A stretch of 64,000 nt of DNA from Candidatus Oxydemutator sp. (GCA_965203445.1 OZ241883.1:1056001-1120000); one strand, 5' to 3'. Positions 4,337-24,230 are shown, counted from the stretch's first letter. Translations and numbers: made by a program. Notes: generated by a model not told the origin, from the sequence alone.

Positions 4337-5475
4337 CAGGTCTCTGCCAGAATACGGTCGGTGTAGGCGCGCAGCACCGCGAGGTACTGCGGCACCGGCA
4401 TCAGAAACGCATCGTGTCCCTGGCGCGCGCGGATCGCGCAGTAACTGACGCGCTTGCCGGCGCGCAGCAACGCATGCGTGATCTCGCGCGAGCGCGACGG
4501 CGGGAAACGCCAGTCGCTGGTGAACGAGGCGACCAGAAAGCTCGCTTGCGCCGCTCTGAGGGCGGCCGCCAGGTCGCCGCCGAAATCCGCCGCCGGATCG
4601 AAGTAATCGAGCGCCTTGGTCATCAGCAGGTAGGTGTTGGCGTCGAAGCGGTTCACGAAAGACTCGCCCTGATAGCGCAGATAGCTCTCGACCTGAAACT
4701 CGACGTCGAAGCCGAAGTTCAGCTTGCCTTCCTTCAGGTCGCGCCCGAATTTTTCACGCATCGCGTCGTCGGACAGGTAGGTGATGTGGCCGAGCATACG
4801 CGCCAGCATCAGCCCCTTCTTCGGCACCGCCAGATCGTAATAGCGCCCGCCGTTGAAGTCCGGGTCCGACACGATGGCCTGGCGCGCGACCTCGTTGAAG
4901 CCGATGTTCTGCGCCGACAGCTTGGGGGCGGCCGCGATCACCAGCGCGTGGCGCAGACCGTCGGGGTAGTCTATCGCCCACTGCAACGCCTGCATGCCGC
5001 CGAGACTACCGCCGATGACCGCGGCCCAGCGGCCGATGCCGAGCGCCTCGGCCAGGAGCTTCTGGCTTCTGACCCAGTCGCGCACGGTGACGATCGGAAA
5101 GTCCGACGCGTAAAGCTCGCCGCTTTCGGGATTGGTCGTGTTCGGCCCGGTGCTGCCCTTGCAGCCCCCGAGGTTGTTCGGGCACACGACGAAGAATTCG
5201 CGCGTGTCGAAAGGCTTGCCCGGCCCGATGCAGCTGTCCCACCAGCCGGGCTTGGCGTCGTCCATCGAGTGGTAGCCGGCGGCGTGCTGGTCGCTCGACA
5301 GCGCGTGGCAGATCAGCAGTGCGTTCGATTTGTCCTCGTTCAGCGTACCGTAGGTCTCGTAGGCCAGCGTGAAACCGGGCAGGCTGTGCCCGCAATCGAG
5401 CGCCAGCGGCGCGGCGAACGAATGGTGCCTAGTGTCGACGAGGCCGACCGAATCGGCTGGGATTTTTTCCGGCAT
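4336..5475 (-). CDS. metX: Homoserine O-acyltransferase MetX
   Basis: LAYETYG.LN...[19 protein letters not shown] nucleophile, GHDAFL catalytic His. Confidence 0.95.
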
Positions 5476-5529
5476 GGACGTTTCACCCGCGCTTTGCGCG
5501 GCGTGGCCATTGTATTACAACGGGTTTGT

Positions 5530-6354
5530 TCACGCGCGCCGCCGGGCCGCAAACGTCAGGACTTCGTAGCTGGCCGGCACCAGGCCGCGTACGCCGTAGC
5601 GCCGCTGGTAGTTCGCCTCCAGCGCGCGTAGGGCCGCGGGCGTCGTCAGGCCGCGACGACGCGCGGCGTGGTGGTTGGTCGCACCGCTGTTTTTCAGGTT
5701 GCGCAGCAGTTCGCCGACGCCGCGATGGTGGACGACCTCGAGCTGGCGCGTGCACAGGTCGACGTCGAAGCTGCTTTGCCGCAATTTCTTTTTCAGCTCG
5801 GCGGCGTCGGCGAAGTCGAGCGTGTGGCGGTAGCCGTCGGCCTCGCTCCAGCTCCGCCGCAGTTCGTCCAGCGTCTTCGGCCCGTAGGTCGAGAACACCA
5901 GGCGCGCGCCGCGCCGCGCGATGCGCGCGAATTGTGCGAACAGGAAGCCGGGATCGGCGAACCACTGCACCAGCGAGCTGGAGTAGATCAGGTCGAACGT
6001 TCCGTCACCGAACGGCGGGCGCTCGGCGTCGGCGCAGACGAAACGCGACGCCGCGTCGCAGCCTTGCGCGGCGCGCCGGATCATGCGCGGCGCGAAGTCG
6101 AGGCCGACGAGGAAGGCGCGCGGGAAGCGGTCGCGCAGCAGGCGCACGCCGTAGCCGGTGCCGGCGCCGGCGTCGAGTATCACGCGCGGGCCGCGCGCGT
6201 CCTTCGCGCACACGTCCGCGCACGTCTGGATCAGGTCGCAGGCGATTTTCTGCTGCACGCCGCTGTATGCATCGTAGCGAGCCGCGGCCCGGTCGAACGA
6301 ATGCCGCACCGCCCGCTTGCTGATCGAGCGCTCCGGTTTCGATACGATTTTCAC
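5530..6354 (-). CDS. bioC: Malonyl-ACP O-methyltransferase BioC
   Basis: SFDRAAARYD...VQ, LDAGAGTG SAM motif, FSTYGP.TL.ELR.SW. GTG at 6354 overlaps the bioH stop. Confidence 0.85.
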   Translation of the reverse strand: MKIVSKPERSISKRAVRHSFDRAAARYDAYSGVQQKIACDLIQTCADVCAKDARGPRVILDAGAGTGYGVRLLRDRFPRAFLVGLDFAPRMIRRAAQGCDAASRFVCADAERPPFGDGTFDLIYSSSLVQWFADPGFLFAQFARIARRGARLVFSTYGPKTLDELRRSWSEADGYRHTLDFADAAELKKKLRQSSFDVDLCTRQLEVVHHRGVGELLRNLKNSGATNHHAARRRGLTTPAALRALEANYQRRYGVRGLVPASYEVLTFAARRRA

Positions 6355-7124
6355 GCCGCCGCCTTTGCGCGCCCGCGTTCCACGCGTCGTTCGATAATCT
6401 GGCACACCTCGGCGGGGTGCGAGAGCACCAGCGCGTGGCCGGCGCCAGCGACGCGGTGAAAATGCCCGCGTTTCGCCAGGCTGGCGCTTTGCGCAAGCGC
6501 CGCCGGCGCCGCCAGCCGGTCTTGCGCGCCGGCGACGAAGTCCACGTGCCGGCGACAACCGCGCAGCTCCTCGCGCAAGTCGCAGTCGCCGAGAAAGCGC
6601 AGCGCCGCCGCCGCCTCGCGTCCCGGGCGCGCGGCGGCCGCCGTCAATCGCCGCAATACCGCCTTCGCGTTCCCGCACCCGGCGACCTGCCAACCGAGGA
6701 AGCGCGCCACGGCACTTTCGGCGTCATCCGCGAAAGACGCCGCGAAGTCGTCGAACGCGGCCCGCTCGATGCCGTGCGGCCAGTCGTCGCAGGCGACGAA
6801 ACGCGAGGGCGAGGCGAGGCAGACGACGCCCGCGGCGCGCTTTGGATGACGGCAGGCCACCGCCTGCGCCAGCAAGCCGCCGAGCGACCAGCCGACCCAC
6901 AGCGCGGGGCGCGCCACGGCCTCCGCCAGCGCGGCCACCAGCTCGTCGGGACGCGAAAACGACAGGTGCCCGTCGGCGCCCGGCACGCCGCCGGGCAGCG
7001 CGATGGTGACCAGCCGGTGGCGCTTTCGCAGGCGCGTGGCGACGTCCTCCCAGCAGCGGCGGGTCATCATCCAGCCGTGCACCAAAACGACGGGTGGGCG
7101 GATTCCGGCATCGGGCAATTTCAT
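6351..7124 (-). CDS. bioH: Pimeloyl-ACP methyl ester carboxylesterase BioH
   Basis: VHGW, GWSLGG, SPSRF....DWP, GHAL..SHP; coupled to bioC. Confidence 0.85.
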   Translation of the reverse strand: MKLPDAGIRPPVVLVHGWMMTRRCWEDVATRLRKRHRLVTIALPGGVPGADGHLSFSRPDELVAALAEAVARPALWVGWSLGGLLAQAVACRHPKRAAGVVCLASPSRFVACDDWPHGIERAAFDDFAASFADDAESAVARFLGWQVAGCGNAKAVLRRLTAAAARPGREAAAALRFLGDCDLREELRGCRRHVDFVAGAQDRLAAPAALAQSASLAKRGHFHRVAGAGHALVLSHPAEVCQIIERRVERGRAKAAA

Positions 7125-7155
7125 AATTGGATTGTATCCGTAGAATAGCCGCATC

Positions 7156-7758
7156 GTGCCCGTCCCGGAAATTGTCGAAACCTTAGCCGTGTTGCTGGCC
7201 GCCTATCTGGTCGGCTCGATTTCGTTTGCGGTTTTGATCTGCCGTGCGCACGGTCGCCCCGATCCGCGCTCGATCGGGTCGGGCAATCCGGGCGCCACCA
7301 ACGTCGCGCGCGCCGCCGGCAAAACCGCCTCGGCGCTGACGTTGTTGGGCGACGCCGGCAAGGGCTGCGCCGTGGTGCTGGCGGTGCGTTACGCGCGTTT
7401 TTCCGAGCTTGTGGTCGCGCTCGCGGCGGTCGCCGTGTTTCTCGGCCATCTGTATCCGCTGTACCACCGGTTCGAGGGCGGCAAGGGCGTGGCCACCTGC
7501 ATGGGCTGTCTGTTCGGCCTGCATCCGCTCGCGGGCCTCGCCTGGGTCGGCGCGTGGCTGGTCGTCGCCGGCGCGTTTCGCTACGTCGCGCTCGCCGGCG
7601 TCGCAGCCGGCCTGGGCGCGCCGCTGCTGGTCTGGTGGAGCGCCGGTTGGGGGCCGCCGGTCGCAGCCGCGGCCGCGATGGGCGCGCTGATTCTCGTGCG
7701 CCACCGCGACAACCTGCGGCGCATACGGTGCGGCGAGGAGGAAAAACTATTCTCGTAA
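7156..7758 (+). CDS. plsY: Glycerol-3-phosphate acyltransferase PlsY
   Basis: GSGNPGATNV.R, GH.YP....F.GGKGVAT, RH..N..R...G.E. Confidence 0.93.
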   Translation: MPVPEIVETLAVLLAAYLVGSISFAVLICRAHGRPDPRSIGSGNPGATNVARAAGKTASALTLLGDAGKGCAVVLAVRYARFSELVVALAAVAVFLGHLYPLYHRFEGGKGVATCMGCLFGLHPLAGLAWVGAWLVVAGAFRYVALAGVAAGLGAPLLVWWSAGWGPPVAAAAAMGALILVRHRDNLRRIRCGEEEKLFS

Positions 7759-7831
7759 ATGACCACCGCCCGTTGCTTCCACTCTCTTGCCCCCCAGGTG
7801 CGTCGTTACACCCGGCGGCAACGCCGTCTTC

Positions 7832-8860
7832 CTATAATGCGGGTGTCGGCGGGCGCAATTCGGTCAGCGGCCAGCGCGCGTGTACGTGCGGCGCCGGGTC
7901 GGCGGTCTGGCCGGCTTGCAGGCGCAACATTCCGGCGTTGGCGATCATGACGCCGTTGTCGGTGCACCACTTCCTCTTCGGATACGTCACTTCGCAGCCG
8001 TCCGCGCCGAGCTTGGTGAGTTCGGCGCGCAGGCGTTTGTTGGCGGCGACGCCGCCGACGGCGACCAGGCGGTCCATGCCGGTGCGTCCGAGCGCGCGTC
8101 GGCAGCGTTGCGCCAGGGCGCCTACCGCCGCCGTCTCGAAGGCACATGCCAGGTCGGCACGGTCCTGTTCGTCGTCGCCGCCGTTGTCGTGCCGCAGTTT
8201 GTGCAGGGCATGCAGCGCATGGGTCTTCAGGCCGCTGAAGCTGAAGTCCAGGCCCGGATGGTTCGCCATCGGACGCGGGAACACGAGGCGTCCGGCGCGC
8301 CCGCGTCGCGCCAACCGTTCCAGCTCCGGGCCGCCCGGATAGCCCAGGCCCAGCATCCGGGCGACTTTGTCAAAGGCCTCGCCGACCGCGTCGTCGAGCG
8401 TATCTCCGAGCAGTTCGTAGCGGCCCAGGCCGTGCGCCGCGACCAGCTGGGTGTGGCCGCCCGACACCAGCAGCGCCAGGTACGGCAGCGGCGGCGCCTG
8501 CGGCAGCGTGCACGCGAGCATGTGCGCCTCCATGTGGTGCACGCCGATGGCCGGTTTGCCCAGTGCCCACGCCAGGCCGTGTCCGAATACGGCGCCGGCC
8601 AGCAGCGCGCCGCTCAGACCGGGACCGGCGGTGTAGGCCACCGCGTCCACCCGTTCGAGCGGCTCGTCGCAGAGCGCCTCGCGCAAAAGCGGCAGCAATT
8701 TGTGCACGTGGTCGCGCGCCGCCAGTTCCGGCACGACGCCGCCGTGCGGGCGGTGCGTCTCGATCTGGCTGAACAGCGCCTCGGCGACGACGCCTTCCTC
8801 GGAGTCCACCAGTCCAATGCCGGTTTCGTCGCACGAGGTCTCTATGCCGAGAACGCGCAC
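7832..8860 (-). CDS. tsaD: tRNA N6-adenosine threonylcarbamoyltransferase TsaD
   Basis: [43 protein letters not shown]. Confidence 0.97.
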
Positions 8861-8863
8861 GAG

Positions 8864-9424
8864 TCAGTAGAGCGAGCGCAGCGCGTTCAGCGTCAGGTAC
8901 AGCAAAAGCAGCACCGCCAACGCGCTGAAGTCTATCGCTCCGAACGGCGGCAGCAGGCGCCGCGCTGGCTCCAGCAGCGGCTCGGCTATGCCGTGGAGCA
9001 ACGACAGGAACGGGTTGGCAAACGCCTGCGCCCCGCTGACGAACCAGCTGCTGACGGCTATGATAAAGATGCTGACCATGTACGTTTGCACCAACAGTTC
9101 GCCAAGCTGTATCAGCCCCACCGTCAGCAGCGTCGGCGCCGGCGGCGAATATCCCTGAAAGCCGGCGACGAGGAACAATTCGAGCACCTTCACCAAATAG
9201 GCCAGCAGCCAGCAAGAAGAGTCCCATCTGCCGGTGCTTGGAATGATCTTTCGCGCCAGCGCGAGCGGCGGTTCGGTCAGCCGCACGATGGTCTGCGACA
9301 ACGGGTTGTAGAAGTCGGCGTGCGCCATTGCCAGCAGGCCGCGCACCACCAGCAGCAGCGCATAGAAGGTCAGCAGCGTGTCGGTTGCGAACAGCAGGGC
9401 GCGCTCGGGCGTGCCTTCGAACAT
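8864..9424 (-). CDS. yggT: YggT family membrane protein
   Basis: ADFYNPLSQ.IVRLT.P and EPLL.P.RR.LP..G.IDFS duplicated YGGT repeats; follows proC. Confidence 0.9.
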   Translation of the reverse strand: MFEGTPERALLFATDTLLTFYALLLVVRGLLAMAHADFYNPLSQTIVRLTEPPLALARKIIPSTGRWDSSCWLLAYLVKVLELFLVAGFQGYSPPAPTLLTVGLIQLGELLVQTYMVSIFIIAVSSWFVSGAQAFANPFLSLLHGIAEPLLEPARRLLPPFGAIDFSALAVLLLLYLTLNALRSLY

Positions 9425-10257
9425 CAGTCGTGCTCCGGTGCCGCGACGTTCGCGGCGATCTCGGCGGCGCGCGCGGTCGCGGCCGCCAGCACCGCTTCGG
9501 CGAGTTCGGCGATGCCCGCTCGCTCCATTGCCGCCAAGCCGCGTTCGGTGGTGCCGCCCGGCGACGTCACCTGGCGGCGCAGCGCGGCGACGTCGCCGCC
9601 GGCCGCGTCGGTCAGCGCGGCGGCGCCGCGGAAGGTGCCGACCGCGAGCCGCCGCGCGGCGTGCGCTTCAAGCCCCAACCTCGCGGCGGCGTCCGCGAAT
9701 GCCTCGGTTACGCGAAAGAAATAGGCCGGGCCGCTGCCGGACAGCGCGGTGACCAGGTTCATTTGTGTCTCGTCGTCCAGCCATACCGTGGTCGCGGCCG
9801 TGCCCAACAGCGCCTCGACCTCGTCGCGTTGCGCCTGCGACACGCGCGCGCCGGCGCACAACGCGGCGACGCCGCGCGCGGCCGCGACCGGTGTGTTCGG
9901 CATACAACGGATAATCGCGAGGCGTGCGCCGCTCCACGCGTCGAGCAGCGCCAGCGGCACGCCGGCGGCGACCGAGACCAGCGGCGCGCCGCGCCGCGCC
10001 AGCACGCCGGAGACGTCGCGGCAGACCGCCTGGACGGCGTCGGGTTTGACGCACGCGAAGGCCACGTCGCAATCCTCGACCGCGTCGCGGTTCGAGGTCG
10101 CCGTCGCAAGCCCCGGATGGCGCGCGGCCAATTTCGCCAGCCGCCCGGCGTCGGGGTCGGATACGCGAAACGAACCGGCCTCGAGACCGCCGGCGGTGAG
10201 GCCGTCCACCAGGCAGCGCGCTATATTGCCGGCGCCGAGGAACGCGACCTTCGGCAT
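9424..10257 (-). CDS. proC: Pyrroline-5-carboxylate reductase
   Basis: FLGAGN, RCMPNTP, TALSGSGPAY, VTSPGGTT. ATG at 10257 overlaps the dsbB stop. Confidence 0.95.
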   Translation of the reverse strand: MPKVAFLGAGNIARCLVDGLTAGGLEAGSFRVSDPDAGRLAKLAARHPGLATATSNRDAVEDCDVAFACVKPDAVQAVCRDVSGVLARRGAPLVSVAAGVPLALLDAWSGARLAIIRCMPNTPVAAARGVAALCAGARVSQAQRDEVEALLGTAATTVWLDDETQMNLVTALSGSGPAYFFRVTEAFADAAARLGLEAHAARRLAVGTFRGAAALTDAAGGDVAALRRQVTSPGGTTERGLAAMERAGIAELAEAVLAAATARAAEIAANVAAPEHD

Positions 10258-10760
10258 CACGCGGTCTCGCGCTTTTTCAGCAACACCGAGGCGCATACCA
10301 GCGCCAGCGCGATGAACAACAGCAGCGTCTGCTGTGCGAGGGTCAGGCCGAGAAAAGTCCACGCGACTTCAGCACATTCGCCGGCGCTGTTCAGCACCGT
10401 TTGCAGCGCCTCGAGCAGGGGGAATTGGTCGAACAGGTAATCCAGCCCCGGCGTGCACTCCGGCAGTTCCTCGGGCGGCAGGCTTTGCAGCCAGACGTGG
10501 CGTCCGGCCAGACCGATGCCGGCGGCGCAGACCAGCAGGCCGGCCGCGGCGTAGAGGCGTTGGCCGAGCACGCCCGGGTCGTGCAGCGCCGCGGCCAGGA
10601 ACAAGGCCGCGGCCAGCGCGACGACCCAGCGGGCGAGGATGCAAAGCGGGCACGGTTCGAGACCGAGCGCGCCTTGCAGCAGGAAAACCGCGACGGTCAG
10701 CGCGCCGGCGGCGAGAACGAATCCGCCCGTGTGCAGGCTGCGGCAGGAAGGCAGAAGCAT
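10257..10760 (-). CDS. dsbB: Disulfide bond formation protein DsbB
   Basis: LEPCPLCI..R, RHVWLQ.LP...P.C.PGL.Y, GECAEV.W.FLGL; four TM helices. Confidence 0.92.
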   Translation of the reverse strand: MLLPSCRSLHTGGFVLAAGALTVAVFLLQGALGLEPCPLCILARWVVALAAALFLAAALHDPGVLGQRLYAAAGLLVCAAGIGLAGRHVWLQSLPPEELPECTPGLDYLFDQFPLLEALQTVLNSAGECAEVAWTFLGLTLAQQTLLLFIALALVCASVLLKKRETA

Positions 10761-10997
10761 GGCCGCGCATTATACGCCGCCGCAACCGGCCAAAAAACTT
10801 TGTCGTTGTTGGCACTCCGATTGTCGGCGGGCCACTCTCGGTTCTTTTGCGGCGGCCACGGCCGTCGTCGGCGCAACCGTCGTTGGTGTCGGTGTCGGTC
10901 TCGGCGATGCCGATTGATTGTGGCGGGAGGCTGAAAACGGCGCGGATCGTCGGCACGTTGTGCCTCCAGCGGATGATTAAGTGAGGAAGCGCGGGTC

Positions 10998-11028
10998 AAA
11001 AAAGGTGGCGCCCCGGGCGGGGCGCCTT
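10998..11028 (-). terminator. Intrinsic terminator of nrdAB
   Basis: Minus strand GGCGCCCC-GCCC-GGGGCGCC hairpin followed by ACCTTTTTT, about 60 bp after the nrdB stop. Confidence 0.7.
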
Positions 11029-11086
11029 GCTCAAGGAAGAGCAAAAAGATGGAGGAGGAAAGGAATGGAGGAGAAAATGCGGTGGT

Positions 11087-12331
11087 TCAATCCCAGTTGA
11101 GCGCTCCGCCGGTCTGATATTCGATCACCCGCGTCTCGAAGAAGTTCTTCTCTTTCTTCAGGTCCAAGATCTCCGACATCCACGGAAACGGGTTGGTCGC
11201 GCCCGGGAATTGCTCGGGCAGCTCGATCTGCGACAGCCTGCGGTTGGCGATGAACTCGACGTACTGCTTGAACAGGTTGGCGTTCATGCCGAGCATGCCG
11301 CGCGGCATCGTGTCCTCGGCGTAGAGCTGCTCGTAGCGCACGCCCTCCAGAATCAGCTCGGTTACCTCCCGCTGGAAGTCCTCGTTCCACAGGTGGGGGT
11401 TCTCGGTCTTGATCTGGTTGATTACGTCTATGCCGAAGTTCATGTGCATTGACTCGTCGCGCAGGATGTACTGAAACTGCTCGGCCACGCCGGTCATCTT
11501 GTTGCGCTGCCCCATGGACAGGATCTGCGCGAAGCCGACGTAGAAGAAGATGCCCTCGAACACGACGTAGAAGGCGATCAGGTCGCGCAACAGGCGCCGG
11601 TCGTTGTCGGGAGTGCCGGTGCGGAACTCAGGATCGCCCAGGCTCCGCGTGTAGGGCAGCGCCCATTCGGATTTGCGCGCCACCGACGGCAGCTCGCGGT
11701 ACATGTTGAACACCTCGCCCTCGTCCAGGCCGAGCGACTCGATGCAGTACTGGTAGGCGTGGGTGTGCAGCGCCTCCTCGAACGCCTGGCGCAGCAGGTA
11801 CTGGCGGCATTCGGGGTTGGTGATATGGCGGTAGAGCGCGAGCACCAGGTTGTTTGCGACCAGCGAGTCGGCGGTCGAGAAGAAGCCCAGGTTGCGCTTG
11901 ACCACCATGCGCTCGTCCTCGCTCAGGCCGTCCTCGCTCTTCCACAGCGCGATGTCGGCGGTCATGTTGATTTCCTGCGGCATCCAGTGGTTGTTGCAGG
12001 CGGCCAGGTATTTGTCCCAGGCCCACGTGTATTTGAACGGCACCAGCTGGTTCAGGTCGGCGCGGCAGTTGATGATCCGCTTGTCGTCCACCTGGATGCG
12101 CGAGGCGCCCATTTCTATCGCCTCGAGACCGGTGGCGCCGCCCGCGCCCCGCCGGCCCGCGCCGTTGGTGTCCTTTCCGGTCTTGCGCGGCGCATCCGGC
12201 GCGTCGGCGGCGGGCGCCGTCGGCGGCACCGCGCCCGGGGAGGGCGGAGGGCGCGCCGTGCGCGCGCGCATCGGCGGCGGCGCCAAGTCTGCCAGCGGGT
12301 CTTTCCATTCGGACGGGTTTATCGTCTGCAT
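11087..12331 (-). CDS. nrdB: Ribonucleoside-diphosphate reductase beta subunit (class I)
   Basis: [35 protein letters not shown]; GGAGGAGG RBS before ATG 12331. Confidence 0.95.
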
Positions 12332-12356
12332 GTTCGCCTCCTCCTTTTGGGTATCG

Positions 12357-15266
12357 TCATTGGCAGGCCTCACATTCGGCGTCGTCCAGCAGGCACGCGC
12401 GCGACGCGTCGCCCGTGGCGGACGCCTCGGCCGCGGGCGCGGTCGGCACCGCGTTGAGGTTGCCGTCGGTTTTCTCCATCGTGCTTTTCTCGACGTGCGT
12501 GGCACCCAGCGAGCGCAGGTAGTACGTCGTTTTCAGGCCCCTGAGCCACGCCAGCTTGTACAGGCTGTCCATCTTCCTGCCGTCCGGCTCGGCCATGTAC
12601 AGGTTCAGCGACTGCGCCTGGTCTATCCATTTCTGGCGCCTGGCCGCGGCCTCGACCAGCCAGCGCGGGTCAATCTCGAACGCGGTCGCATAGAGCGACT
12701 TGATCTCGTCGGGCACGCGGTCGAGCCGCTGGATGCCGCCGTCGTAGTACTTCAGGTCGTTGACCGTGACCTCGTCCCATAGCTCGAGCTTTTTGAGGTC
12801 GTCCACCAGGTACGAGTTGATGACCGTGAACTCGCCCGACAGGTTGGATTTGACGAACAGGTTGCGGTAGGTCGGCTCTATGCTCTGGGTCACGTTGCAG
12901 ACGTTCGAGATGGTCGCGGTCGGCGCGATCGCCATCGTGTTCGAGTTGCGCATGCCGACCGTCTTGACGCGCTTGCGCAGCGCGTTCCAGTCGAGCGTCG
13001 AGGAGTCGTCCACCTGCAACAGGCCGTCGCGCGCCTTGGCGAGCAGGCGCAGCGAATCAATCGGCAGCACGCCCTGGCTCCACAGCGAGCCCGGGTAGCT
13101 CTGATAAACGCCGCGCTCCTCGGCCAAGTCGGTCGAGGCCTTGATCGCGCAGTAGCTGACCGCCTCCATCGAGCGGTCGGCGAACTCCACCGCCCGTTCG
13201 TCGGCGTACGGCAGGCGCAGCTTGTAGAGCGCGTCCTGAAAGCCCATCAGCCCGAGTCCGACCGGCCGGTGGCGCAGGTTGGAGTCGCGCGCCTTGCGCA
13301 CGCTGTAGTAGTTGTAGTCGATTACGTTGTCGAGCATGCGCATCGCGGTGCCGACGGTTTTCTCGAGCCGCTCCATCAGCAGGCCGTTCTCGTCCACGTG
13401 CAGCGCGAGGTTGACCGATCCTAAGTTGCACACCGCGATCTCGTCGTCCGACGTGTTCAGCGTGATCTCGGTGCACAGGTTGGACGAGTGGACGACGCCG
13501 GCGTGGCGTTGCGGCGAGCGCAGGTTGCACGAGTCCTTGAAGGCCAGCCACGGGTGGCCGGTCTCGTAGAGCATGTTCAGCATCTTGCGCCACAGGTCGG
13601 CGGCGCGCACGCGCTTGAAGTTGGCAATCCTGCCGGCGTCGGCGTCGGCCTCGTACTCGGCGTAGCGCTTCTCGAATTCCTCGCCGCAGAGCTCGTGCAG
13701 ATCGGCCGTCTCGCTCGGCGAGAACAGCGTCCACGTGCCGTCTTCCTTGAGGCGCTTCATGAACAGATCCGGGATCCAATTCGCGGTGTTCATGTCGTGC
13801 GTGCGGCGGCGGTCGTCGCCGGTGTTTTTGCGCAGCTCGAGGAACTCCTCGACGTCCAGGTGCCAGGTTTCGAGGTAAGCGCACACCGCGCCCTTGCGCT
13901 TGCCGCCCTGGTTGACCGCGACCGCGGTGTCGTTGGCCACTTTCAGGAACGGGACGATGCCCTGCGACTTGCCGTTGGTGCTTTTGATGCGCGAACCCAT
14001 CGCGCGCACGCGCGTCCAGTCGTTGCCGAGACCGCCCGCGAACTTCGACAGCATCGCGTTGTCCCGCACGGCCTCGAAGATGCCGTGCAGGTCGTCGGCC
14101 ACCGTGGTCAGGTAGCACGACGACAGTTGCGGGCGCAGCGTGCCGGAGTTGAACAGCGTCGGCGTCGAACTCATAAAGGCGAACGACGACAGCAGATCGT
14201 AGAACTCGACGGCGCGCCGCTCGCGCTCCACCTCGTTCATCGCCAGTCCCATGGCCACGCGCAGGAAGAACGCTTGTGGCAGCTCGAAGCGCACCTCGTC
14301 CCAGTGGATGAAGTAGCGGTCGTAGAGCGTTTGCAGCCCGAGGTAGTTGAAGGCGTGGTCGCGCTCGGGCTTGATGGCCGAGGCCAGGCGGTCGAGGTCG
14401 AATTCGTCGCGCAGCCTCGGGTCGAGCAGCTCCAGCTCGCAGCCGCGCTCGACGTAGCGCTTGAAGTAGTCGGGGTAGCGCGCCGTCATCTCGCCGTGCG
14501 TCGCCTCGTCGGGGCGCCCGGCCAGGAAGCTCAGCGCCTCGCGGCGCAGTTTGTCCAGCAGCAGGCGCGCCGAGACCAGACTGTAGTTCGGCTCCCTCTC
14601 GACCATCGCGCGCGCGCTCATGATCAACGCGACGCTGACGTCCGCGGCCCTCATGCCGCTGAACAGGTTGCGCAGCGTCTCCTCGACGATCGGCTGCGTC
14701 TCGACGCACGCGGTGTCACGGCATGCCTCCTCGACGATAGTGCGCAGGCGCGCGAGGTCGAGCGGCTTCATCGTTCCGTCCTCGTGCTCGACCGCGATCT
14801 CGCCGTCGGTGCCGGCGTCGTCGTCGCGTCGCCGTTGGTCGTCGTCGAGGCGTTCCCGGGCGCGCTGCTCGCGGTAGAGGACGTAGGAGCGCGCGACTTT
14901 GTGGTGGCCGTCGCGCATCAACGCCAGTTCGACCTGATCCTGTATATCCTCTATATGAAAGGATTCTCCGCCGCTGCGATTGCGCGCCAGCGCGGCCACG
15001 ACCTGAGCGGTCAGGCCGTGGACGATCTCGTGGACGCGCGGGGACGCCGCCGCGCTTCTGCCCTCGACGGCCAGAAACGCCTTGGTCAGCGCGAGCGTGA
15101 TCTTCGACGGATCGAACGCGGTGACCTTGCCGTTGCGGCGTATCACCTTATACTGCGTCGCCGCCGTCGTTGTCGTCGCGGTCGTGGAGGGGGCTTCGGT
15201 CGTGGCGACGGCGGCCGGATTTTCGGCGTTCGTGGTCGCAGCCGGCGCGGTCGGTTGTGTTTGCAT
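12357..15266 (-). CDS. nrdA: Ribonucleoside-diphosphate reductase alpha subunit with ATP cones
   Basis: VIRRNG...FD..KI ATP cone, [28 protein letters not shown]-terminal CEACQ. Confidence 0.97.
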
Positions 15267-15310
15267 AAGGAAAAATGCCCCGTCTGGTTGATGAAAGTAA
15301 GGGTTGAAAA

Positions 15311-15358
15311 GCACAACATATGGTAAATAAACCGTCCCGTCAATACAATATGTTGAGT
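15311..15358. promoter_or_regulatory. Tandem NrdR boxes upstream of nrdA
   Basis: GCACAACATATGGTAA (15311-15326) and ATACAATATGTTGAGT (15343-15358) match acaCwAtATaTwGtgt, starts 32 bp apart, in the AT-rich nrdA promoter. Confidence 0.8.
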
Positions 15359-15392
15359 TTTTCTTGTTATTTCCGGTCGCAAAGCTTGTCTA

Positions 15393-17393
15393 ATGCCTGT
15401 GGATAACCGCGAGAGACCCCATCGCCATAAGGCACATATCGGCGCCGACACCGGGGGTACGTTCACCGACCTCGTCCTGTTCGACGGCAAGCGCCTGCGC
15501 ACGCACAAGATTCTGTCGACGCCGGACGGCCCGGAGCGGGCGATAGTCGCCGGGGTGCGCGCCGTCGGTGCCGACGTCGGTGGCGCGCTCGAGCTGACGC
15601 AAGGTTCGACCGTCGGCACCAACGCGGTGCTCGAAGGCAAGGGCGCCAGGACCGCCTACGTCACGAACCGCGGCTTCGCCGATACGCTGGCGATAGCGCG
15701 CCAGGCGCGCACTGGACTGTATAACTTGAAACCGGCGCCGCGACCGAACCCGGTGCCGCCGCAACTGTGCCTGGAGACCGGCGGGCGCGTGGCCGCGGAC
15801 GGTGCGGTGTTGGAGGACTTGAGCGTCGCCGACGTCGCGGCGCTGGGGCGGCGCCTGAAGGCATTGGCGCCGGACGCGGTCGCCGTCAACCTGCTGTTTT
15901 CGTTCCTCGACGCGCGTTTCGAGGAGCAACTGGCGGCGGCGTTCGGGTGCGACTACTTTGTGTCGTTGTCGTCGCGCGTCTGCCCGATGCCCGGCGAATA
16001 CGAACGCGGCGTCGCCACTTGGTTGAACGCCTATATCGGGCCACTGATGCGCGCGTGGCTCCTGAAGTTATGCTCGGCCCTGCCGCGCGCGACGATCCGC
16101 GTGATGCAAAGCCACGGCAAGACCGCCGCGGCCACGCGGGCCGCCGACCAGGCGGTGCATCTGTTGCTGTCCGGCCCGGCCGGCGGCGTCATCGCGGTGG
16201 ACTATCTGGCGCGCCTGATCGGCGAGCGCAAGGTGCTCAGCTTCGACATGGGCGGCACCTCGACCGACGTGTCGGTGTTGAACGGCGGCGTCGCGCTGAC
16301 GACCGAAGGGAGCGTCGGCCCTTACCCGGTGGCGGTACCGATGGCGGACGTGCATACCATAGGCGCCGGCGGCGGTTCCATCGTGCGTGTGGACGAAGGC
16401 GGGCTGCTGCAAGTCGGCCCCGAATCCGCCGGCGCCTCGCCCGGCCCCGCCTGCTATGGTTTGGGCGGGCTGCGTCCGACGGTCACCGATGCCAACCTGC
16501 TGCTCGGGCGCCTGCCGGTCTCGCTGCGCGGCCTCGAGTTGAGCCGCGCCGCGGCCGCGCGCGCCTTTCACCCGCTGGCGGCCGCGTTGGGAAAGGATGA
16601 GACGGAGACCGCGCACGGCGTCGTTGCGACCGTCAACGAACAGATGATACGCGCGCTGCGCGCGATGTCGGCGGAGAGGACCTACGACCCTTCGGAGTTC
16701 CTGCTGGTCGGTTTCGGCGCCGCCGGCGGCTTGCACGTCTGCGCGCTGGCCGACGGTATCGGCATCAGGCGGGCGCTGGTGCCGGCGCACGCGGGCGTGC
16801 TGTCGGCGCTCGGCATGTTGGTCGCGTCGCGCGGCCTGGAGAAGACTGCCGCCGTCTGCGAGTTGCTGCGTGAGTTGTCGGCCGGGCGCGCGACGGCGGT
16901 GCGTCGCAGGTTGGAGACCGCCGCCGCCGCCGATCTGCGCGCGCAGGGAATCAACGACTATGAAACGCGCCTGTTTGCCGATCTGCGCTATCGCGGACAA
17001 TGGTCGTGCCTGACGCTGCCGTGGCAGTCTCTGGTGCGCCTCGAGGAGGCTTTTCACGAGGCGCACGAGGCGCGTTACGGCCATCGTTTGAAAATTCCGG
17101 TCGAGCTGGCGGCGTTGAAACTCCAGGCGTACGCGGCCGCTGCGGTGGACGTGGCCGCGGCGCTGCGGCGCGCGGCGGCCGACGTCAATCGGGCACGCAC
17201 TTTGCAACGGAAGACAGCCTTTGCGGTTGGTGCCGAGTTGCCCGTCTATCAACGCCGCAACCTGTCGTTGACCGGGGTCGTGTCGGGCCCCGCGGTCATC
17301 GTCGAGGACACCGGGACGGTGTACCTGGCGCCCGGTTGGAACGCGCGCCTTGATGATTACGGCAATCTGACGTTGGCCGGATCGTCGGACTAA
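15393..17393 (+). CDS. Hydantoinase/5-oxoprolinase A-type subunit
   Basis: GADTGGTFTD, GSTVGTNA.LE.KG, LLSGPAGG, FDMGGTSTD, TIGAGGGS, SAGA.PGPACY. Confidence 0.9.
   Translation: MPVDNRERPHRHKAHIGADTGGTFTDLVLFDGKRLRTHKILSTPDGPERAIVAGVRAVGADVGGALELTQGSTVGTNAVLEGKGARTAYVTNRGFADTLAIARQARTGLYNLKPAPRPNPVPPQLCLETGGRVAADGAVLEDLSVADVAALGRRLKALAPDAVAVNLLFSFLDARFEEQLAAAFGCDYFVSLSSRVCPMPGEYERGVATWLNAYIGPLMRAWLLKLCSALPRATIRVMQSHGKTAAATRAADQAVHLLLSGPAGGVIAVDYLARLIGERKVLSFDMGGTSTDVSVLNGGVALTTEGSVGPYPVAVPMADVHTIGAGGGSIVRVDEGGLLQVGPESAGASPGPACYGLGGLRPTVTDANLLLGRLPVSLRGLELSRAAAARAFHPLAAALGKDETETAHGVVATVNEQMIRALRAMSAERTYDPSEFLLVGFGAAGGLHVCALADGIGIRRALVPAHAGVLSALGMLVASRGLEKTAAVCELLRELSAGRATAVRRRLETAAAADLRAQGINDYETRLFADLRYRGQWSCLTLPWQSLVRLEEAFHEAHEARYGHRLKIPVELAALKLQAYAAAAVDVAAALRRAAADVNRARTLQRKTAFAVGAELPVYQRRNLSLTGVVSGPAVIVEDTGTVYLAPGWNARLDDYGNLTLAGSSD
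15398..15406 (-). promoter_or_regulatory. Consensus DnaA box (TTATCCACA)
   Basis: TGTGGATAA on +, 40 bp beyond the NrdR boxes. DnaA control of nrdAB is established in E. coli. Confidence 0.5.
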
Positions 17394-17449
17394 GCCGGAT
17401 GGCGCGCGAATATGGACAACGGCGGATGATACTGGTTTAATCGGCGACT

Positions 17450-18436
17450 ATGGAATCTCGCGTGGAAACGATCACCCGACGTTATCCGATCACACTGGTG
17501 ACGGCGTACTTTAATCTGGGAGACAGGTCCGGGTTGGGAAGAGACCATCATTTTTATGATGACCGGATGCGTTACTTTTTCCCGCATATACAATGGCCTC
17601 TGGTGATTTTCTGTGATAAGGAATCTTTGGATGGAATCAAGCAGTTAAGGGGGGGGAAGCCGGCGACCTATATCGTCACCACGCTCGAAGAGTTCCACGT
17701 CTATAAGTACTATGGGCGCTTCTATTACGAGGGCATCTGTGGGCAATGGGCTTTTGGATACCAGGATTTACTTATGGTCTGGAATGAAAAGCTCAATTTC
17801 GTTCGACGCGCGATAAAGTTGAATCCCTATGAATCGGATATGTTTTTCTGGTGTGACGCGGGCTGCTTCAGGGGAGCAGGGGTAGGCGGGGCTGGCATTA
17901 TGAGACTGTCTGATCGAACGGAGTGGCCTAATTTTCAAGTCTGTCGAAAGCTGCCCCAGGACAAGGCCATTTTTATGCGAGCAAGTCAAGTCGGCGAAAA
18001 AATTTACGTTCGCGCGACTTTTTTCGGTGGTGCAGCCAAACCCATGCTGCGGTGGTGTGATGCTTTTTATCAGCACCTTGCTGATCGGGTTGATAAGAAC
18101 CTGCTGTTATTCGCTGATGAGCGTAGCATGTCTGACGTTTGCGACGAGCGGCCGGACGTTGTACACCTGCTGTCTCCGGACGATGTTGCATGGGTAACAA
18201 AGGTGGTAGGAAATGATTGGCAGGGAGATTGGCAGGGCTTTTTCAAGTGGTATTTTTTGAACGGCGGTAAGTTTCCGTTGGGCTTTTTGTGCATAAGAAT
18301 TTCTTATTACCTGAGGAACCGACAATTGATGAAGTGGCTGCTGTCAGAACTTCTTTATCAATCGAGGCGCTGGTTAAGAAGTTCACCGGATCGGTCACCG
18401 CAAAATCTTCGCATGAGACCGCCGCGATGGAAGTGA
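17450..18436 (+). CDS. HtrL/YibB (WlaTC)-like putative glycosyltransferase, lower GC
   Basis: ITLVTAYFNLG, WNEKLNFV.RAI..NPY.SD.FFWCDAGCFR; visibly more AT-rich than flanking genes. Confidence 0.6.
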   Translation: MESRVETITRRYPITLVTAYFNLGDRSGLGRDHHFYDDRMRYFFPHIQWPLVIFCDKESLDGIKQLRGGKPATYIVTTLEEFHVYKYYGRFYYEGICGQWAFGYQDLLMVWNEKLNFVRRAIKLNPYESDMFFWCDAGCFRGAGVGGAGIMRLSDRTEWPNFQVCRKLPQDKAIFMRASQVGEKIYVRATFFGGAAKPMLRWCDAFYQHLADRVDKNLLLFADERSMSDVCDERPDVVHLLSPDDVAWVTKVVGNDWQGDWQGFFKWYFLNGGKFPLGFLCIRISYYLRNRQLMKWLLSELLYQSRRWLRSSPDRSPQNLRMRPPRWK

Positions 18437-18439
18437 CGT

Positions 18440-18649
18440 TCGGCGATGGACTCGACCGCGCGCAGTGCTCGTGTGTCCGGCGATGATTTCCGCGATGTGC
18501 AAGGGCCTGCGCGCGGGGCTGGAGGGAGTAGAAGGCGTCGAATGCGGCGCGCGTCGGCCAAGTCCCCTTTCGACATGTGCGCGGCGGACGTCGGGAACCG
18601 CTTCGTCGCGCGCGGATTTCGCGTGCCTGATCAAGAGCAGTGTTTTCAC
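18440..18649 (-). pseudogene. Degenerate SixA-like histidine phosphatase
   Basis: VKTLLLIRHAKS (RHAK active-site motif) and SSPARR...AEIIA are retained. The middle is scrambled and the 3' part is missing where it meets the HtrL-like gene. Confidence 0.6.
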
Positions 18650-18718
18650 GAGGGCGGGGCGGGCGCGGACGAGAACGGGGACGCGCCTCATGCGCCCGGG
18701 ACGGTGCTCTCGCTCGAA

Positions 18719-19918
18719 TCAGCGTTTGGCCGTGTGTTTCGGAACCCGTTCGCGCGCCTCTTTGATGAGAACCCTCTGATTGTTGCCCAACCCCTCGACG
18801 TCGCGCAGCACGATGCGCTCGCCCGCTTTGAGGCCGTGCTCGATGATGATTTCATCGCCGTTGCGTCCGCCTACGGTGACGCGGCGACGCAACACGATTT
18901 CGTCTTCCTCGACGAACACGAACGGTTGGCCGTTGATGTATTGGATCGAGGTTACCGGCACGACGACGGCGCCCGTGCGCGAGTGCCCCGGCAGACGCGC
19001 CTGCGCGGCCGCGCCGGCTTGCAGGCCGTCCCCTTGCAACCTGATCTTCGCGGCATGGGTGTAGGTTTCGCGGTTGGGATCGGTTTGCAGCGACATCAGC
19101 GTGCCGATGTGCGTCCGCCCGCCGACCGTCACCTCGACCGCAAGCCCCAGTTCGAGCGCCGCGGCCCGTTCGTTGCTGACGTTCAGAAACAGGTCGAGTT
19201 CGTCTGCCACCACCAATTCGGCGACCGACTTGTCCTTGCCGACGTAGTCGCCGACGTCGGCCTCGATTTTGTTGACGGTGCCGGCGAAGGGAGCGTGCAG
19301 CGTGGTGCGGTCGAGGTTGCGCCGCGCCTGGTCGTGCAGGCTGCGGTTGAGCCTGGCGTTGAGCTTGCCTTCCTCGACCGCGTGCGTGAGCCGCACCCGT
19401 TCGGAGCGCAAGTCCACCAGTTTTTGGCGTTCGGCGTCGAGCAGCGAGGACGAGGCCAGCTGCTGTTCGCCTAGCCTCTCGATGCGCGCGACTTCGCGCT
19501 TGCGCAGTTCGACGTTTTGCGCGGCGAGTTCGAGCAGGCGCGCGTCTCTTTCGAGTTTCTTCTCGATCAGTTCGAGGCGGGTTTGCGCCTGCACCAGGGC
19601 GTCGCGGTAATCGCCGTCGTCGAGTTGCAGCAGCGCCTGCCCCTGGCGCACGCGCGTGCCGGCCTCGACGTTTTTGGCGACGACGCGCCCCGCCACCTCG
19701 AACCGCAATTCGCCGACGCGCGCCGGTTGCAGGCGTCCGGTCAGCAGATGGCTCGGCGTGATTTCACGCGCGACGATCCGGCCGACCTCGACCAGCCGCG
19801 GTGCGTCCACGACGCTTTGCTGCGCTCCTTGTGGACGCAGCCACGTCAGCAGACTGGCGACGACTGCGATGGTTACGGCGACAATCGCGCCTGAGGCGAG
19901 CTTTTGTGACATGCGCAT
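18719..19918 (-). CDS. RND-type efflux periplasmic adaptor (membrane fusion protein)
   Basis: N-terminal TM, LRFEVAGRV....V..G..V..GQ.L lipoyl half, coiled coil, LHAPFAGTV, GL..GERIV. Confidence 0.85.
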   Translation of the reverse strand: MRMSQKLASGAIVAVTIAVVASLLTWLRPQGAQQSVVDAPRLVEVGRIVAREITPSHLLTGRLQPARVGELRFEVAGRVVAKNVEAGTRVRQGQALLQLDDGDYRDALVQAQTRLELIEKKLERDARLLELAAQNVELRKREVARIERLGEQQLASSSLLDAERQKLVDLRSERVRLTHAVEEGKLNARLNRSLHDQARRNLDRTTLHAPFAGTVNKIEADVGDYVGKDKSVAELVVADELDLFLNVSNERAAALELGLAVEVTVGGRTHIGTLMSLQTDPNRETYTHAAKIRLQGDGLQAGAAAQARLPGHSRTGAVVVPVTSIQYINGQPFVFVEEDEIVLRRRVTVGGRNGDEIIIEHGLKAGERIVLRDVEGLGNNQRVLIKEARERVPKHTAKR

Positions 19919-19989: not shown

Positions 19990-21216
19990 TCAGACGTTTT
20001 CGACGGGCAGGCGGGCGACGGCGAGCGTCGGTTTCAGCGCGTAGCCCTGGATCCTCCTCGAAAACTCCTGAAGTTTGTGCAAACCGGTCGCTTCGGCCTG
20101 GGTGCACCACTCGCGCAGCGAGCTGCACAAGTGGTGGTGGTCGCCGTGGTGTGTGCTCCACAGCTTGTGCAGCCTGTGGTTGAACTCGTGCACCTGTTTC
20201 AACCTCGGATTGTTCACCAGCACCCGTTTCAGGGTGGCACGGTCTTTCGCGCTGACGTGGCGCTCGTGGCGCAGCATCGCGCGCCTGGCTCTCAACAGCA
20301 GCTGGCGATGGGCGCCTTCGGCGACCGCCAGCTCGGCGCGTACGACCGGCACGACCACGGTCGCGGCGTATTCACGCATCACGTGAAGGCGGCCGTGGAA
20401 CAGCGCCGCGGCGGTTTTCAGATCGAGGGGGCCGTCGTGCGCCGAAGTGCGCTTCGGCATCGGCGCAAGACGCAACACCCGCGCCAAACCGAGTGCGCGC
20501 AACACGCGGATGTAGAGCCAGCCGACGTCGAACTCCCACCACTTGATCGAGAACTTCGCGGAACTCGGAAAGGCGTGATGGTTGTTGTGCATTTCCTCAC
20601 CGCCGATCAGGACGCCGACGTTGCAGAAGTTGGTCGAGTCGTCGTCGGTGGCGAAGTTGCGGTAACCGCCGAAATGCCCGATGCCGTTGACGACGCCGGC
20701 GGCGAAAAACGGTATCCACATCATCTGCAAGGCCCACAGGGCGATACCGAAAAAACCGAGCAGGACGTATTCCAGCACCAGTAGCACCGCGATGCCGATA
20801 CTCGGATGACGCGAGTAGAGGCGCTGCTCCAGCGCGTCGCCCGGCGTGCCGCGCCCGTAGTCCTCAAGCGTCGCCTCGTTGTACGCCTCGTTGCGGTAGA
20901 GGTCGGCACCGCGCAGCAGCACCGAGAGTATGCCCTTGAAGGCGGGGCTGTGCGGATCGTCGGCGGTCTCGCACTTGGCGTGGTGCTTGCGGTGTATCGC
21001 AACCCACTCTTTGGTGACCATGCCGGTCGTAAGCCACAGCCAGAAACGCATCACGTGGTTGACGGCGGGATGGAAATCCACGCTGCGATGCGCCTGCGAA
21101 CGATGCAAAAACAACGTTACACAGGCTATCGTCACATGCGACAACGAGAGCGCCAGGATCAGATAGCCCCACCACGGGAGTTGCACCAGCCCGTGTCCGG
21201 TCAGTAATTCAAGCAT
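19990..21216 (-). CDS. desA: DesA-family fatty acid (delta-9) desaturase
   Basis: His boxes HRSQAH, HRKHH, HNNHH; SAKFS.KWWEFD.GW; Pseudomonas-type C-terminal extension. Confidence 0.88.
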   Translation of the reverse strand: MLELLTGHGLVQLPWWGYLILALSLSHVTIACVTLFLHRSQAHRSVDFHPAVNHVMRFWLWLTTGMVTKEWVAIHRKHHAKCETADDPHSPAFKGILSVLLRGADLYRNEAYNEATLEDYGRGTPGDALEQRLYSRHPSIGIAVLLVLEYVLLGFFGIALWALQMMWIPFFAAGVVNGIGHFGGYRNFATDDDSTNFCNVGVLIGGEEMHNNHHAFPSSAKFSIKWWEFDVGWLYIRVLRALGLARVLRLAPMPKRTSAHDGPLDLKTAAALFHGRLHVMREYAATVVVPVVRAELAVAEGAHRQLLLRARRAMLRHERHVSAKDRATLKRVLVNNPRLKQVHEFNHRLHKLWSTHHGDHHHLCSSLREWCTQAEATGLHKLQEFSRRIQGYALKPTLAVARLPVENV

Positions 21217-21404
21217 AGCGCGCTACGATACCCCAAAAACGCCGCCAGTCAACCGACAATGTCTCCGGCCGCCCAGGCGTCGCTTATGCCAGATGTTTTT
21301 GAGCGGCAAAACGGGGCAAAAGCCGCGCCGGCGCGTGTATAATCCGGCAACGGGGTTTGCTTCATGCCGAACGCATTGTGCGAGCAAAACAAATGGAGGG
21401 ACTT

Positions 21405-21776
21405 GTGAACCAGGATAAAACACCAGTAAGCTTCCTGAAGACAAAGGAAACTATGGCAATAGCAGTGGCCGATCGCTATTGTGGGGATGAAAAATTCCGG
21501 AACCTGTTTGACCATGATCCGAAAGCGGCTTTCGCCCAGTATTTGGATATTGATCGTAAACATTGGCCGCCCGACATGGGGCTGGTAATACTGCGCAACG
21601 ATGACAAATGTATGCATATAGGAGTACCGGCGTCGCATACGGACGACAATGCGGAAATTTCCGATTCGGATCTGGACAATCTGTCGGGAGGTTCTGGCTA
21701 TGCCCTGTACTTCGCCCTATGGGGGAGACCCCCGACGGCGGCGGTAAACGATGGTTCGGGGTGGAGGTACATTTAG
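21405..21776 (+). CDS. NHLP (nitrile hydratase-like leader) / proteusin-type RiPP precursor
   Basis: Leader DEKFRNLFDHDPKAAF...PPDMGLVILRNDDKCMHIGVP...EISDSDLDNLSGG (double-glycine site) plus a 27-aa core. GGAGG RBS before GTG 21405 and TATAAT at 21338-21343. Confidence 0.8.
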   Translation: MNQDKTPVSFLKTKETMAIAVADRYCGDEKFRNLFDHDPKAAFAQYLDIDRKHWPPDMGLVILRNDDKCMHIGVPASHTDDNAEISDSDLDNLSGGSGYALYFALWGRPPTAAVNDGSGWRYI

Positions 21777-21944
21777 TGACATCGCAGACGTGATACGTCC
21801 AGTTCCTGATCGAGGAGCAACAACTATAAATACTACCCATGAAGGCACATGGAGCGATACGCTACTCGATAAGGCGATACTGAACACCGGCCGCTACAAA
21901 CTCGAACTATGCTTGGCATAGTCGTACATGGAAAGGAGTATCCG

Positions 21945-22307
21945 ATGCCCACAATAGAAATTACCCACGACAACTTTCAGCAGACGCTGCAAGACAACGA
22001 CGTCGTGGTGCTCGATTTTTGGGCCTCGTGGTGCGGGCCGTGTCGTTCGTTTGCGCCGGTGTTCGAGGCGGTTTCCGACAATCACGCGGACGTTGCGTTC
22101 GGCAAGGTCAACACCGAGGAGCAGCAGGATCTGGCCGCGGCCTACCGCATCCGTTCGATTCCGACGCTGATGCTGTTTCGTGAGCGCGTGGTGTTGTTTT
22201 CGCAGCCGGGTGCGTTGTCGGCGGCGCAGCTTGAGGATCTGGTTGCAAAGGCCCAGGCGCTCGACATGGACGAGGTGCGCGAGGAGATCAGGAAGCAGGC
22301 GGAATAG
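21945..22307 (+). CDS. Thioredoxin
   Basis: DFWASWCGPC, IRSIPTLM; AAGGAG RBS. Confidence 0.93.
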   Translation: MPTIEITHDNFQQTLQDNDVVVLDFWASWCGPCRSFAPVFEAVSDNHADVAFGKVNTEEQQDLAAAYRIRSIPTLMLFRERVVLFSQPGALSAAQLEDLVAKAQALDMDEVREEIRKQAE

Positions 22308-23741: not shown

Positions 23742-24230
23742 TCAAGCTGGCATAGCGGTTGCTTTGATTTGTCGTTGTCCTCCGACACGCCTGTTTTCGA
23801 TTGTCCGTGCTTCTTTTAAGAATGCCAGATAGAAATCCTCAAAAACATTGGCCCAGTCCGATTGTATGCCGTCGGCCGAGTCTGATTCCCAGTCAGCCGT
23901 TTGCATATCATGTTGAGAATCATATTGGGGATATGGGGGCATGAGACGAAATGAGGATATTATATTCCGCCAGGAGGACCTTTTCCCTTGCCATTGTCGC
24001 TGTCTCTTTTCTAAAAGCCGGGCCAATTCTTTGTCATAGATTTCCAGTGTCTTGGCGGCGTTGTCTTCCCGGTCGGGAGATGCAAAAAGATCCAACTGTT
24101 TGTCCACCATCAGCGTCTTGGCGTCTTTGATCTGGTTTGATTGCTCGACGTAGCGGACAAGCAATTCGGCGAGTTCGATATAGTTTTTTTCCATGATTCT
24201 CGCAAGAACCTCTTTTTCCGCGAGTCTCAT
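23742..24230 (-). CDS. Hypothetical protein, lower GC
   Basis: 162-aa ORF with AT-rich codons; upstream TGcTACAAT. No family recognised with confidence. Confidence 0.55.
   Translation of the reverse strand: MRLAEKEVLARIMEKNYIELAELLVRYVEQSNQIKDAKTLMVDKQLDLFASPDREDNAAKTLEIYDKELARLLEKRQRQWQGKRSSWRNIISSFRLMPPYPQYDSQHDMQTADWESDSADGIQSDWANVFEDFYLAFLKEARTIENRRVGGQRQIKATAMPA

Follow-up and report, generated by a model that had tools for sequence, protein, structure and literature searches.

A stranded proteusin-type precursor gene in Candidatus Oxydemutator sp. is probably the relic of a maturation system still carried by its congeners

In the account of Haft and co-workers (2010, PMC2887384), precursors of the NHLP family carry a long leader that is related to nitrile hydratase alpha, without the CxxCSC metal site of that enzyme. 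The same source describes 1-12 paralogues per genome that may lie far from their enzymes, an export trio (TIGR03794/03796/03797) that co-varies with them (Haft, Basu and Mitchell, 2010), and NHLPs in species where enzymes of the TOMM or lanthionine type have not been identified; remote precursors, multi-copy families and NHLPs for which a species has no identified maturase are therefore already described. Polytheonamides and landornamides are also named as proteusins in a study of nostatin A, the cluster of which holds a predicted precursor, cyclodehydratase, oxidase and epimerase (NstC, NstD, NstE and NstF; PMC11583998). The case of one enzyme facing many substrates is represented by the prochlorosins, in the description of which a single promiscuous ProcM serves many precursors with a shared leader and differing cores (PMC10783134). 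Here we describe a precursor gene that shares features with each of these systems and compare it with its relatives in the same genus.

The stretch analyzed here, referred to as the window, comprises 64,000 nucleotides of Candidatus Oxydemutator sp. (GCA_965203445.1 OZ241883.1:1056001-1120000) and lies within a single 2,378,814-bp contig that is rated 100% complete. It contains the NHLP/proteusin-type precursor gene F (21405..21776, + strand), which encodes 123 amino acids plus a stop in a stop-free translation. Alignment with homologues and an AlphaFold model place the leader at residues 1-96 (21405..21692, +), ending in ISDSDLDNLSGG with a double-glycine cleavage motif, while translation and homologue comparison place the core peptide at residues 97-123 (21693..21773, +). 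The C-terminal part of the protein translated from 21405-21776 (+) reads ...EISDSDLDNLSGG followed by the core, SGYALYFALWGRPPTAAVNDGSGWRYI. An earlier reading of this DNA from the sequence only (the sequence-only reading) had described a Cys-free core of 27 residues that contains 3 Tyr, 2 Trp and 1 Phe, which is exact. It had also placed the gene alone between a desaturase and a thioredoxin gene, and Pfam searches with the neighbors agree: a fatty-acid desaturase lies to the left (19990..21216, - strand; PF00487, E 2.5e-17) and a thioredoxin to the right (21945..22307, +; PF00085, E 1.7e-26). The desaturase is an odd pairing, as its FA_desaturase match covers residues 14-228 and residues 269-391 match the ISL3 transposase family (PF01610, E 1.3e-11).

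A GGAGG ribosome-binding site (21395..21399, +) can be read 5 nt before the GTG start of F. The TATAAT hexamer that had been assigned to F as its own is likewise there (21338..21343, +) and could be a -10 element, but it has no -35 partner and a two-hexamer sigma-70 scan returned no + strand promoter upstream of F; no + strand terminator was found after F in the scan. The database model of F (P0002) starts four codons earlier, at ATG 21393. We prefer GTG 21405 because it coincides with the position at which the two closest homologues begin, with MNQDK.. in one and MNQNK.. in the other. The GC content of F by codon position is 0.57/0.41/0.56, in a genome with 63.6% GC overall. Its third-position value (GC3) of 0.56 compares with 0.74-0.90 for typical genes of the genome and about 0.8-0.9 for the adjoining housekeeping genes, so that the lower GC remarked on earlier is confirmed. 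A contig from a second study spans 20909-22004 with zero differences, and runs X4, X8 and X10 match parts of the F flanks with small shares, X8 including one short, divergent piece over 21620-21760. Two further low-GC3 ORFs lie nearby, one encoding 162 aa without a Pfam match (23742-24230, -; GC3 0.51) and the other 328 aa with a weak HtrL_YibB match (17450-18436, +; GC3 0.55); in the congener genome G001, a 141-aa low-GC ORF with similar C-terminal sequence adjoins a likely hemL gene (locus L034, 5507-5932).

Searched alone against the NHLP leader model TIGR03793, as had been proposed, F gives a match over model positions 9-77 of 77 (E 9.2e-5), the score of which, 22.2 bits, is below the curated cut-off of 50.9 bits. 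F also matches TIGR04509 (E 2.8e-4), and a Pfam search with the protein returned no match. A HMMER search of 1.84 billion representatives retrieved 31 proteins at E<=0.001, including F's own record, with E values down to 4e-27; because 30 other representatives match at this level, the NHLP assignment is more than chance. F and 27 of these 30 matches were analyzed as a set of 28 sequences, with three proteins of 803-882 aa left out. The long proteins P0006, P0020 and P0022 (800-880 aa), which contain several NHLP-like stretches, gave only incoherent, zero-stretch Pfam matches, and these were rejected. The closest homologues are P0003, with 53% identity to F, and P0004, with 56%, in both cases over residues 1-98 only. 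All 28 analyzed sequences consist of a leader, then GG or AG, and then an unrelated core. A scan of metagenome contigs with the three closest sequences gave 281 pattern matches and no relative.

The alignment of F with 15 homologues (A1) strengthens the assignment. TIGR03793 is matched by all 16 members, at best with E 1.3e-13, and TIGR04509 by 14 of them. In the PDB, the A1 profile finds two NHLP precursors of solved structure, 8tb1_A at E 1e-9 and 9cjx_A at E 9.6e-8, aligning over positions 13-94 including the ...sdedL..v.GG end. Eleven leader positions are invariant in A1 (Y25, F31, R32, F35, D36, P39, K40, N65, H71, P75 and G96) and G95 is nearly so, the SGG of F being residues 94-96. F has just two Cys residues, C26 and C69, and thus no CxxCSC motif like that of the metal site in nitrile hydratase. 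Leader positions -12, -7, -4, -2 and -1 are I, L, L, G and G, which fits the double-glycine leader pattern. An AlphaFold model of F built on A1 has a mean pLDDT of 66.5, with blocks within 11-80 at 65-90, so the leader is moderately confident, and values below 50 for residues 107-123, the core being disordered in the model. Foldseek against the PDB placed the same two structures, 8tb1 and 9cjx, on top with non-significant scores (E 0.28 and 0.41, TM 0.28-0.42). At the level of profiles, F is therefore assigned to the NHLP/proteusin family, as the sequence-only reading had it, below the curated cut-off for single sequences. It shares the Gly-Gly leader end and the hypervariable core of that family; its own core is poor in heterocyclizable residues.

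The core of F cannot be aligned with those of its homologues. It had been singled out as unusually aromatic, but with an aromatic fraction of 0.22 it comes third among the 28 family cores (median 0.10), 23 of which lack Cys, so that it is not exceptional. Ser, Thr and Cys are scarce in most cores, with a median fraction of 0.13. Although the cores are otherwise unrelated, F (..FALWGRPPTAA..) and the homologue P0008 (..SDLWGRPDPEA..) both have LWGRP in theirs, which may be a vestige of shared ancestry.

F has company elsewhere in the host genome. A genome-wide search with TIGR03793 gave six NHLP-like frames, none at the cut-off (best 45.7 bits), and a three-sequence profile added a seventh, so the suggestion to look for solo genes of this type yielded six besides F, with GC3 values of 0.74-0.86. 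In genome coordinates, genes A (419008-419382, +) and B (93035-93454, -) are intact, with ..SGG ends and long hydrophobic, transmembrane-like cores; C (2114887-2115252, -) is an NHLP-like frame; D (1154854-1155159, +), 35 kb past the end of the window, has an ..SGG end and the aromatic core THVQFDTFWRSPQYYGYP; E (1854543-1854893, +) is without a GG end; and G (311064-311426, -) is intact with an ..SGG end plus core. Five genes (A, B, D, F and G) thus have an ..SGG end plus core, and all five are intact. In congener G001, a gene with a tail like the hydrophobic core of A occupies a similar position near a topoisomerase gene, where A sits. Within 9 kb on either side of genes A-F, we found housekeeping or mobile-element genes and no recognizable RiPP maturase.

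The statement that no RiPP maturase lies within the 64 kb holds for the families searched, none of which matched inside the window. Extended to the whole genome, the searches returned no Peptidase_C39 domain (PF03412), YcaO, SagB, PoyD-like radical-SAM, P450 or LanC-like match, and tblastn of the genome with the HlyD, SagB, PoyD-like and YcaO proteins of G001 found nothing. The best match to the exporter model TIGR03796 scores 297 bits against a cut-off of 853 and starts at model position 160, after the peptidase domain. The ABC exporters of the genome are ordinary proteins of about 600 aa; three frames upstream of them, considered as hidden C39-like domains, were rejected as Arg/Pro-rich and spurious. 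The Trp-halogenase model, which has 458 positions, is matched over positions 1-35 and 1-36 only and also gives matches in 12 of 14 control genomes. The one SPASM and the one PqqD protein are encoded by adjacent genes and are PqqE and PqqD; as PQQ synthesis genes, they were rejected as maturases of F. Of the ten radical-SAM matches found, nine reach the cut-off of a curated, named family or exceed it (MoaA, MiaB, BioB, PqqE, HemW, LipA, QueE, EpmB and the functionally uncharacterized PA0069 family). The remaining one, an enzyme of 460 aa encoded about 2 kb from gene E beside a Gfo/Idh/MocA oxidoreductase, was rejected, its homologues occurring in 9 of 41 genomes, including precursor-free genera. 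A DUF692/MNIO enzyme is present and was also rejected, because its occurrence, in 31 of 41 relatives, is independent of NHLP presence. PqqE and DUF692/MNIO are the RiPP-type enzymes left in the genome. The scan for RRE-containing enzymes, halogenases, radical-SAM or P450 enzymes and C39 transporters that had been called for therefore retrieved no candidate maturase, PqqD-PqqE being the only SPASM/RRE pair, and every enzyme that tracks F's family is missing, an outcome that the sequence-only reading itself had equated with a relic gene.

The enzymes that do track the family are found in the congeners. Across 41 genomes (the host genome and 40 relatives) searched with P0001, matches besides the host were confined to three congeners (G001, G002 and G003) and G022, a member of another family. 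A three-sequence profile (A2), run on 19 genomes of the host's family, counted 21 precursors in G001, 14 in G003, 3 in G002, which is 85% complete, 4 in the host and 0 in 15 genomes of other genera. The NHLP genes of G001 occur in arrays and as singles among housekeeping genes, with GC3 of 0.55-0.72, and a public MAG chromosome labeled 'uncultured candidatus Porisulfidus sp.' has four such loci. One array, at about 10721-14807 of L034 (636000-655999) in G001, places about five NHLP genes, along with a transposase-like ORF, between nqrE- and nqrF-like ORFs; it seems to split a Na+-NQR operon, the nqr names being given from gene order and similarity to the window.

The three congener genomes each encode a single C39 ABC transporter, which exceeds the TIGR03796 cut-off, as well as two SagB-family proteins over cut-off and one YcaO protein. 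PoyD-like radical-SAM enzymes score 319 bits in G001 and 324 bits in G002 against a cut-off of 325, with a partial match in G003, and none was found in the other genomes of the 41. In G001, this set is split over two loci. The exporter locus runs TolC, HlyD, ABC1 with C39, ABC2 and two 510-aa SagB/ThcOx-like proteins, preceded on the other strand before TolC by a response-regulator/SpoIIE gene and a histidine-kinase gene. The second locus, beside nrdB, holds a Gly-Gly precursor with a core rich in Ser, Thr and Cys, a PoyD-like epimerase (TIGR04517, E 3.4e-95, full length) and an 803-aa protein in which a TOMM leader-binding domain (TIGR03882) is fused to a SagD/YcaO cyclodehydratase (TIGR03604). 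The congeners hold the exact NHLP export trio over the cut-offs, with G001 scoring 220 bits against 156 for TIGR03794, 957 against 853 for TIGR03796 and 752 against 709 for TIGR03797, whereas F's host lacks the trio. They also have the same four functions as the nostatin A cluster; here, these are split over two loci and face 14-21 scattered precursors instead of being clustered with one, and the nostatin core, as given in its published description, is rich in Ser, Thr and Cys, which the F core is not. The prochlorosins resemble this arrangement in their economy of enzymes and differ in having a Nif11 leader and lanthionine and in belonging to another phylum; F's host has no LanC-like protein. 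A different arrangement again is seen in G022 (L064, 1072000-1091999), where ABC2, a C39 ABC transporter, HlyD, two fused YcaO proteins and one SagB adjoin two NHLP precursors with Ser/Thr-rich cores, which on its gene content is a compact classical TOMM cluster unlike that of F's genus. The proposal of a dispersed system with maturases in trans is consequently sound for the genus, with its split enzyme set, and fails for the host genome, from which the enzymes are gone.

PoyD-type radical-SAM epimerases act without a need for Cys, Ser or Thr, and the Cys-free aromatic cores are therefore plausible epimerase substrates. A pathway is proposed for the congeners in which the leader would dock both on the epimerase and on the YcaO fusion, there via its leader-binding domain, the core would receive D-residues, as well as azol(in)es where Ser, Thr or Cys allow, and the two SagB-like dehydrogenases would oxidize these azol(in)es. 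The C39 domain would then cut after Gly-Gly during export via ABC, HlyD and TolC. The precursors of the genus are fast-evolving, low in GC3 and scattered over the chromosome, combine a leader that is conserved with cores that are unrelated, and would depend on a single enzyme set acting in trans; we infer that the congener enzymes act on F-type cores. The host would have lost both enzyme loci, leaving F transcribable and translatable without its cognate modification, cleavage and export.

The loss is visible at the exporter locus. The G001 flanks are conserved in the host at 1296306-1301847 and 1302090-1302623 (tblastn), and by blastn the host (G000) positions 1301438-1301994 and 1302083-1302622 correspond to 4168-4693 and 19330-19869 of L048 in G001. 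Between them, about 88 bp in the host stand against about 14.6 kb in G001 (L048 about 4694-19329), all of which is absent. Beside this gap, a 43-codon remnant (1301908-1302036, -) corresponds to residues 344-386 of the 392-aa response-regulator/SpoIIE protein, with 60% identity (E 4e-11), and is the scar of a deletion of the exporter/SagB cassette. The intact flanking genes are 54-87% identical to those of G001; because the remnant falls within this range, the loss would be fairly recent. A plasmid or other unassembled replicon that carries the cassette is possible.

The counterpart of the epimerase/YcaO locus lies inside the window. Flank orthologues (tblastn) and ORF limits define an empty site, a 317-bp spacer (10770..11086) between the end of an nrdB-like gene at 11087 and the end of a 196-aa gene at 10769, where the G001 interval is about 5.2 kb. 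No remnant of the three G001 genes was detected in this spacer by blastn or tblastx. As the site has no scar, the locus could equally be a gain in the other three lineages, and from this site alone loss and gain are indistinguishable. A frame in the spacer (10833-10917, +) ends ...AAATAVVGATVVGVGVGLGDAD*, and a 42-nt stretch has a match of 76% (E 0.003) in an NHLP gene of G001, at its hydrophobic tail (L066 14025-14066). By this weak match, the frame may be a remnant of an NHLP gene with a hydrophobic core.

Because every step after translation lacks its enzyme, we read F as an orphaned relic, stranded but not yet decayed, and assign this a probability of roughly 0.7; we infer that no mature peptide is made from F. 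Against decay, the ORF is intact, the ribosome-binding site is strong and all invariant leader residues are kept. Since the five Gly-Gly genes, F among them, and the second-study contig show no decay, either the loss is recent or F is still used. Continued use would mean that F works without the canonical machinery, as an unprocessed 123-residue protein or after release by an unrelated protease or exporter. Such a role would agree with the intact gene and signals, with the persistence of five intact GG-type genes, three of which have GC3 values nearer native (0.74-0.86), with the identical sequence in a second study's contig, and with the NHLPs that Haft et al. (2010, PMC2887384) mention in species for which no enzymes of the TOMM or lanthionine type are identified. 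It is nevertheless unlikely, as the genome yielded no candidate enzyme or C39 domain, its ABC exporters are ordinary with spurious N-terminal extensions, and the 4 copies against 21 and 14 in two of the three congeners fit attrition. That all five Gly-Gly genes are under selection, whether as substrates of an enzyme family so far unconnected with RiPPs or as unprocessed proteins of about 120 residues, is a still more doubtful proposition.

F itself could have been acquired recently, by transfer or recombination from a co-resident strain with the machinery, and never have functioned here. None of the other six NHLP-like genes has a GC3 as low, its closest homologues (53-56% over the leader) lie outside the congeners, where the best match reaches 40-46%, and the locus is rearranged relative to G001, as shown by the desaturase and thioredoxin genes being about 200 kb apart there. 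Low GC3 alone is no proof of transfer, however, because values of 0.55-0.72 are typical of the scattered genes of G001, and no mobile-element gene adjoins F; we consider this history improbable. Very improbable is the product envisaged in the sequence-only reading, in which maturases elsewhere in the genome halogenate Trp or Tyr or cross-link the aromatic residues of the core. The YxxY, WGR and WxY spacings of the core and the similar core of paralogue D speak for such chemistry. Against it, and largely refuting it, the genome encodes no P450, no true halogenase and no spare SPASM enzyme, PqqE and PqqD being its only SPASM/RRE proteins; the Trp-halogenase matches are partial and non-specific in the controls, no C39 domain was found for leader removal, the MNIO enzyme does not track F's family, and comparable aromatic cores occur in other family members. 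That F is a chance frame, or that the antisense ORF at 21249-21638 (-) favored by a crude GC3-based gene picker is the real gene, is hardly credible given + strand homologues at E values down to 4e-27 and an antisense ORF without a Pfam match.

Read as a relic, F is a stranded member of a known family, which corrects its description as an orphan with an exotic core, and a pursuit of aromatic cross-links or halogenation in this organism is unlikely to repay the effort. If the five Gly-Gly genes were instead under selection without maturases, they would represent a second life for proteusin precursors. The host genome may serve as a matched natural knockout, in which the enzymes were lost first and the precursors linger. 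The more interesting lead lies beyond the window of F, in the arrangement of its congeners: genomes of 1.6-1.8 Mb with one split enzyme set and up to 21 scattered precursors with hypervariable cores that mostly lack Cys, a system that would amount to a natural combinatorial library and could supply leader/enzyme pairs for the engineering of D-amino-acid peptides.
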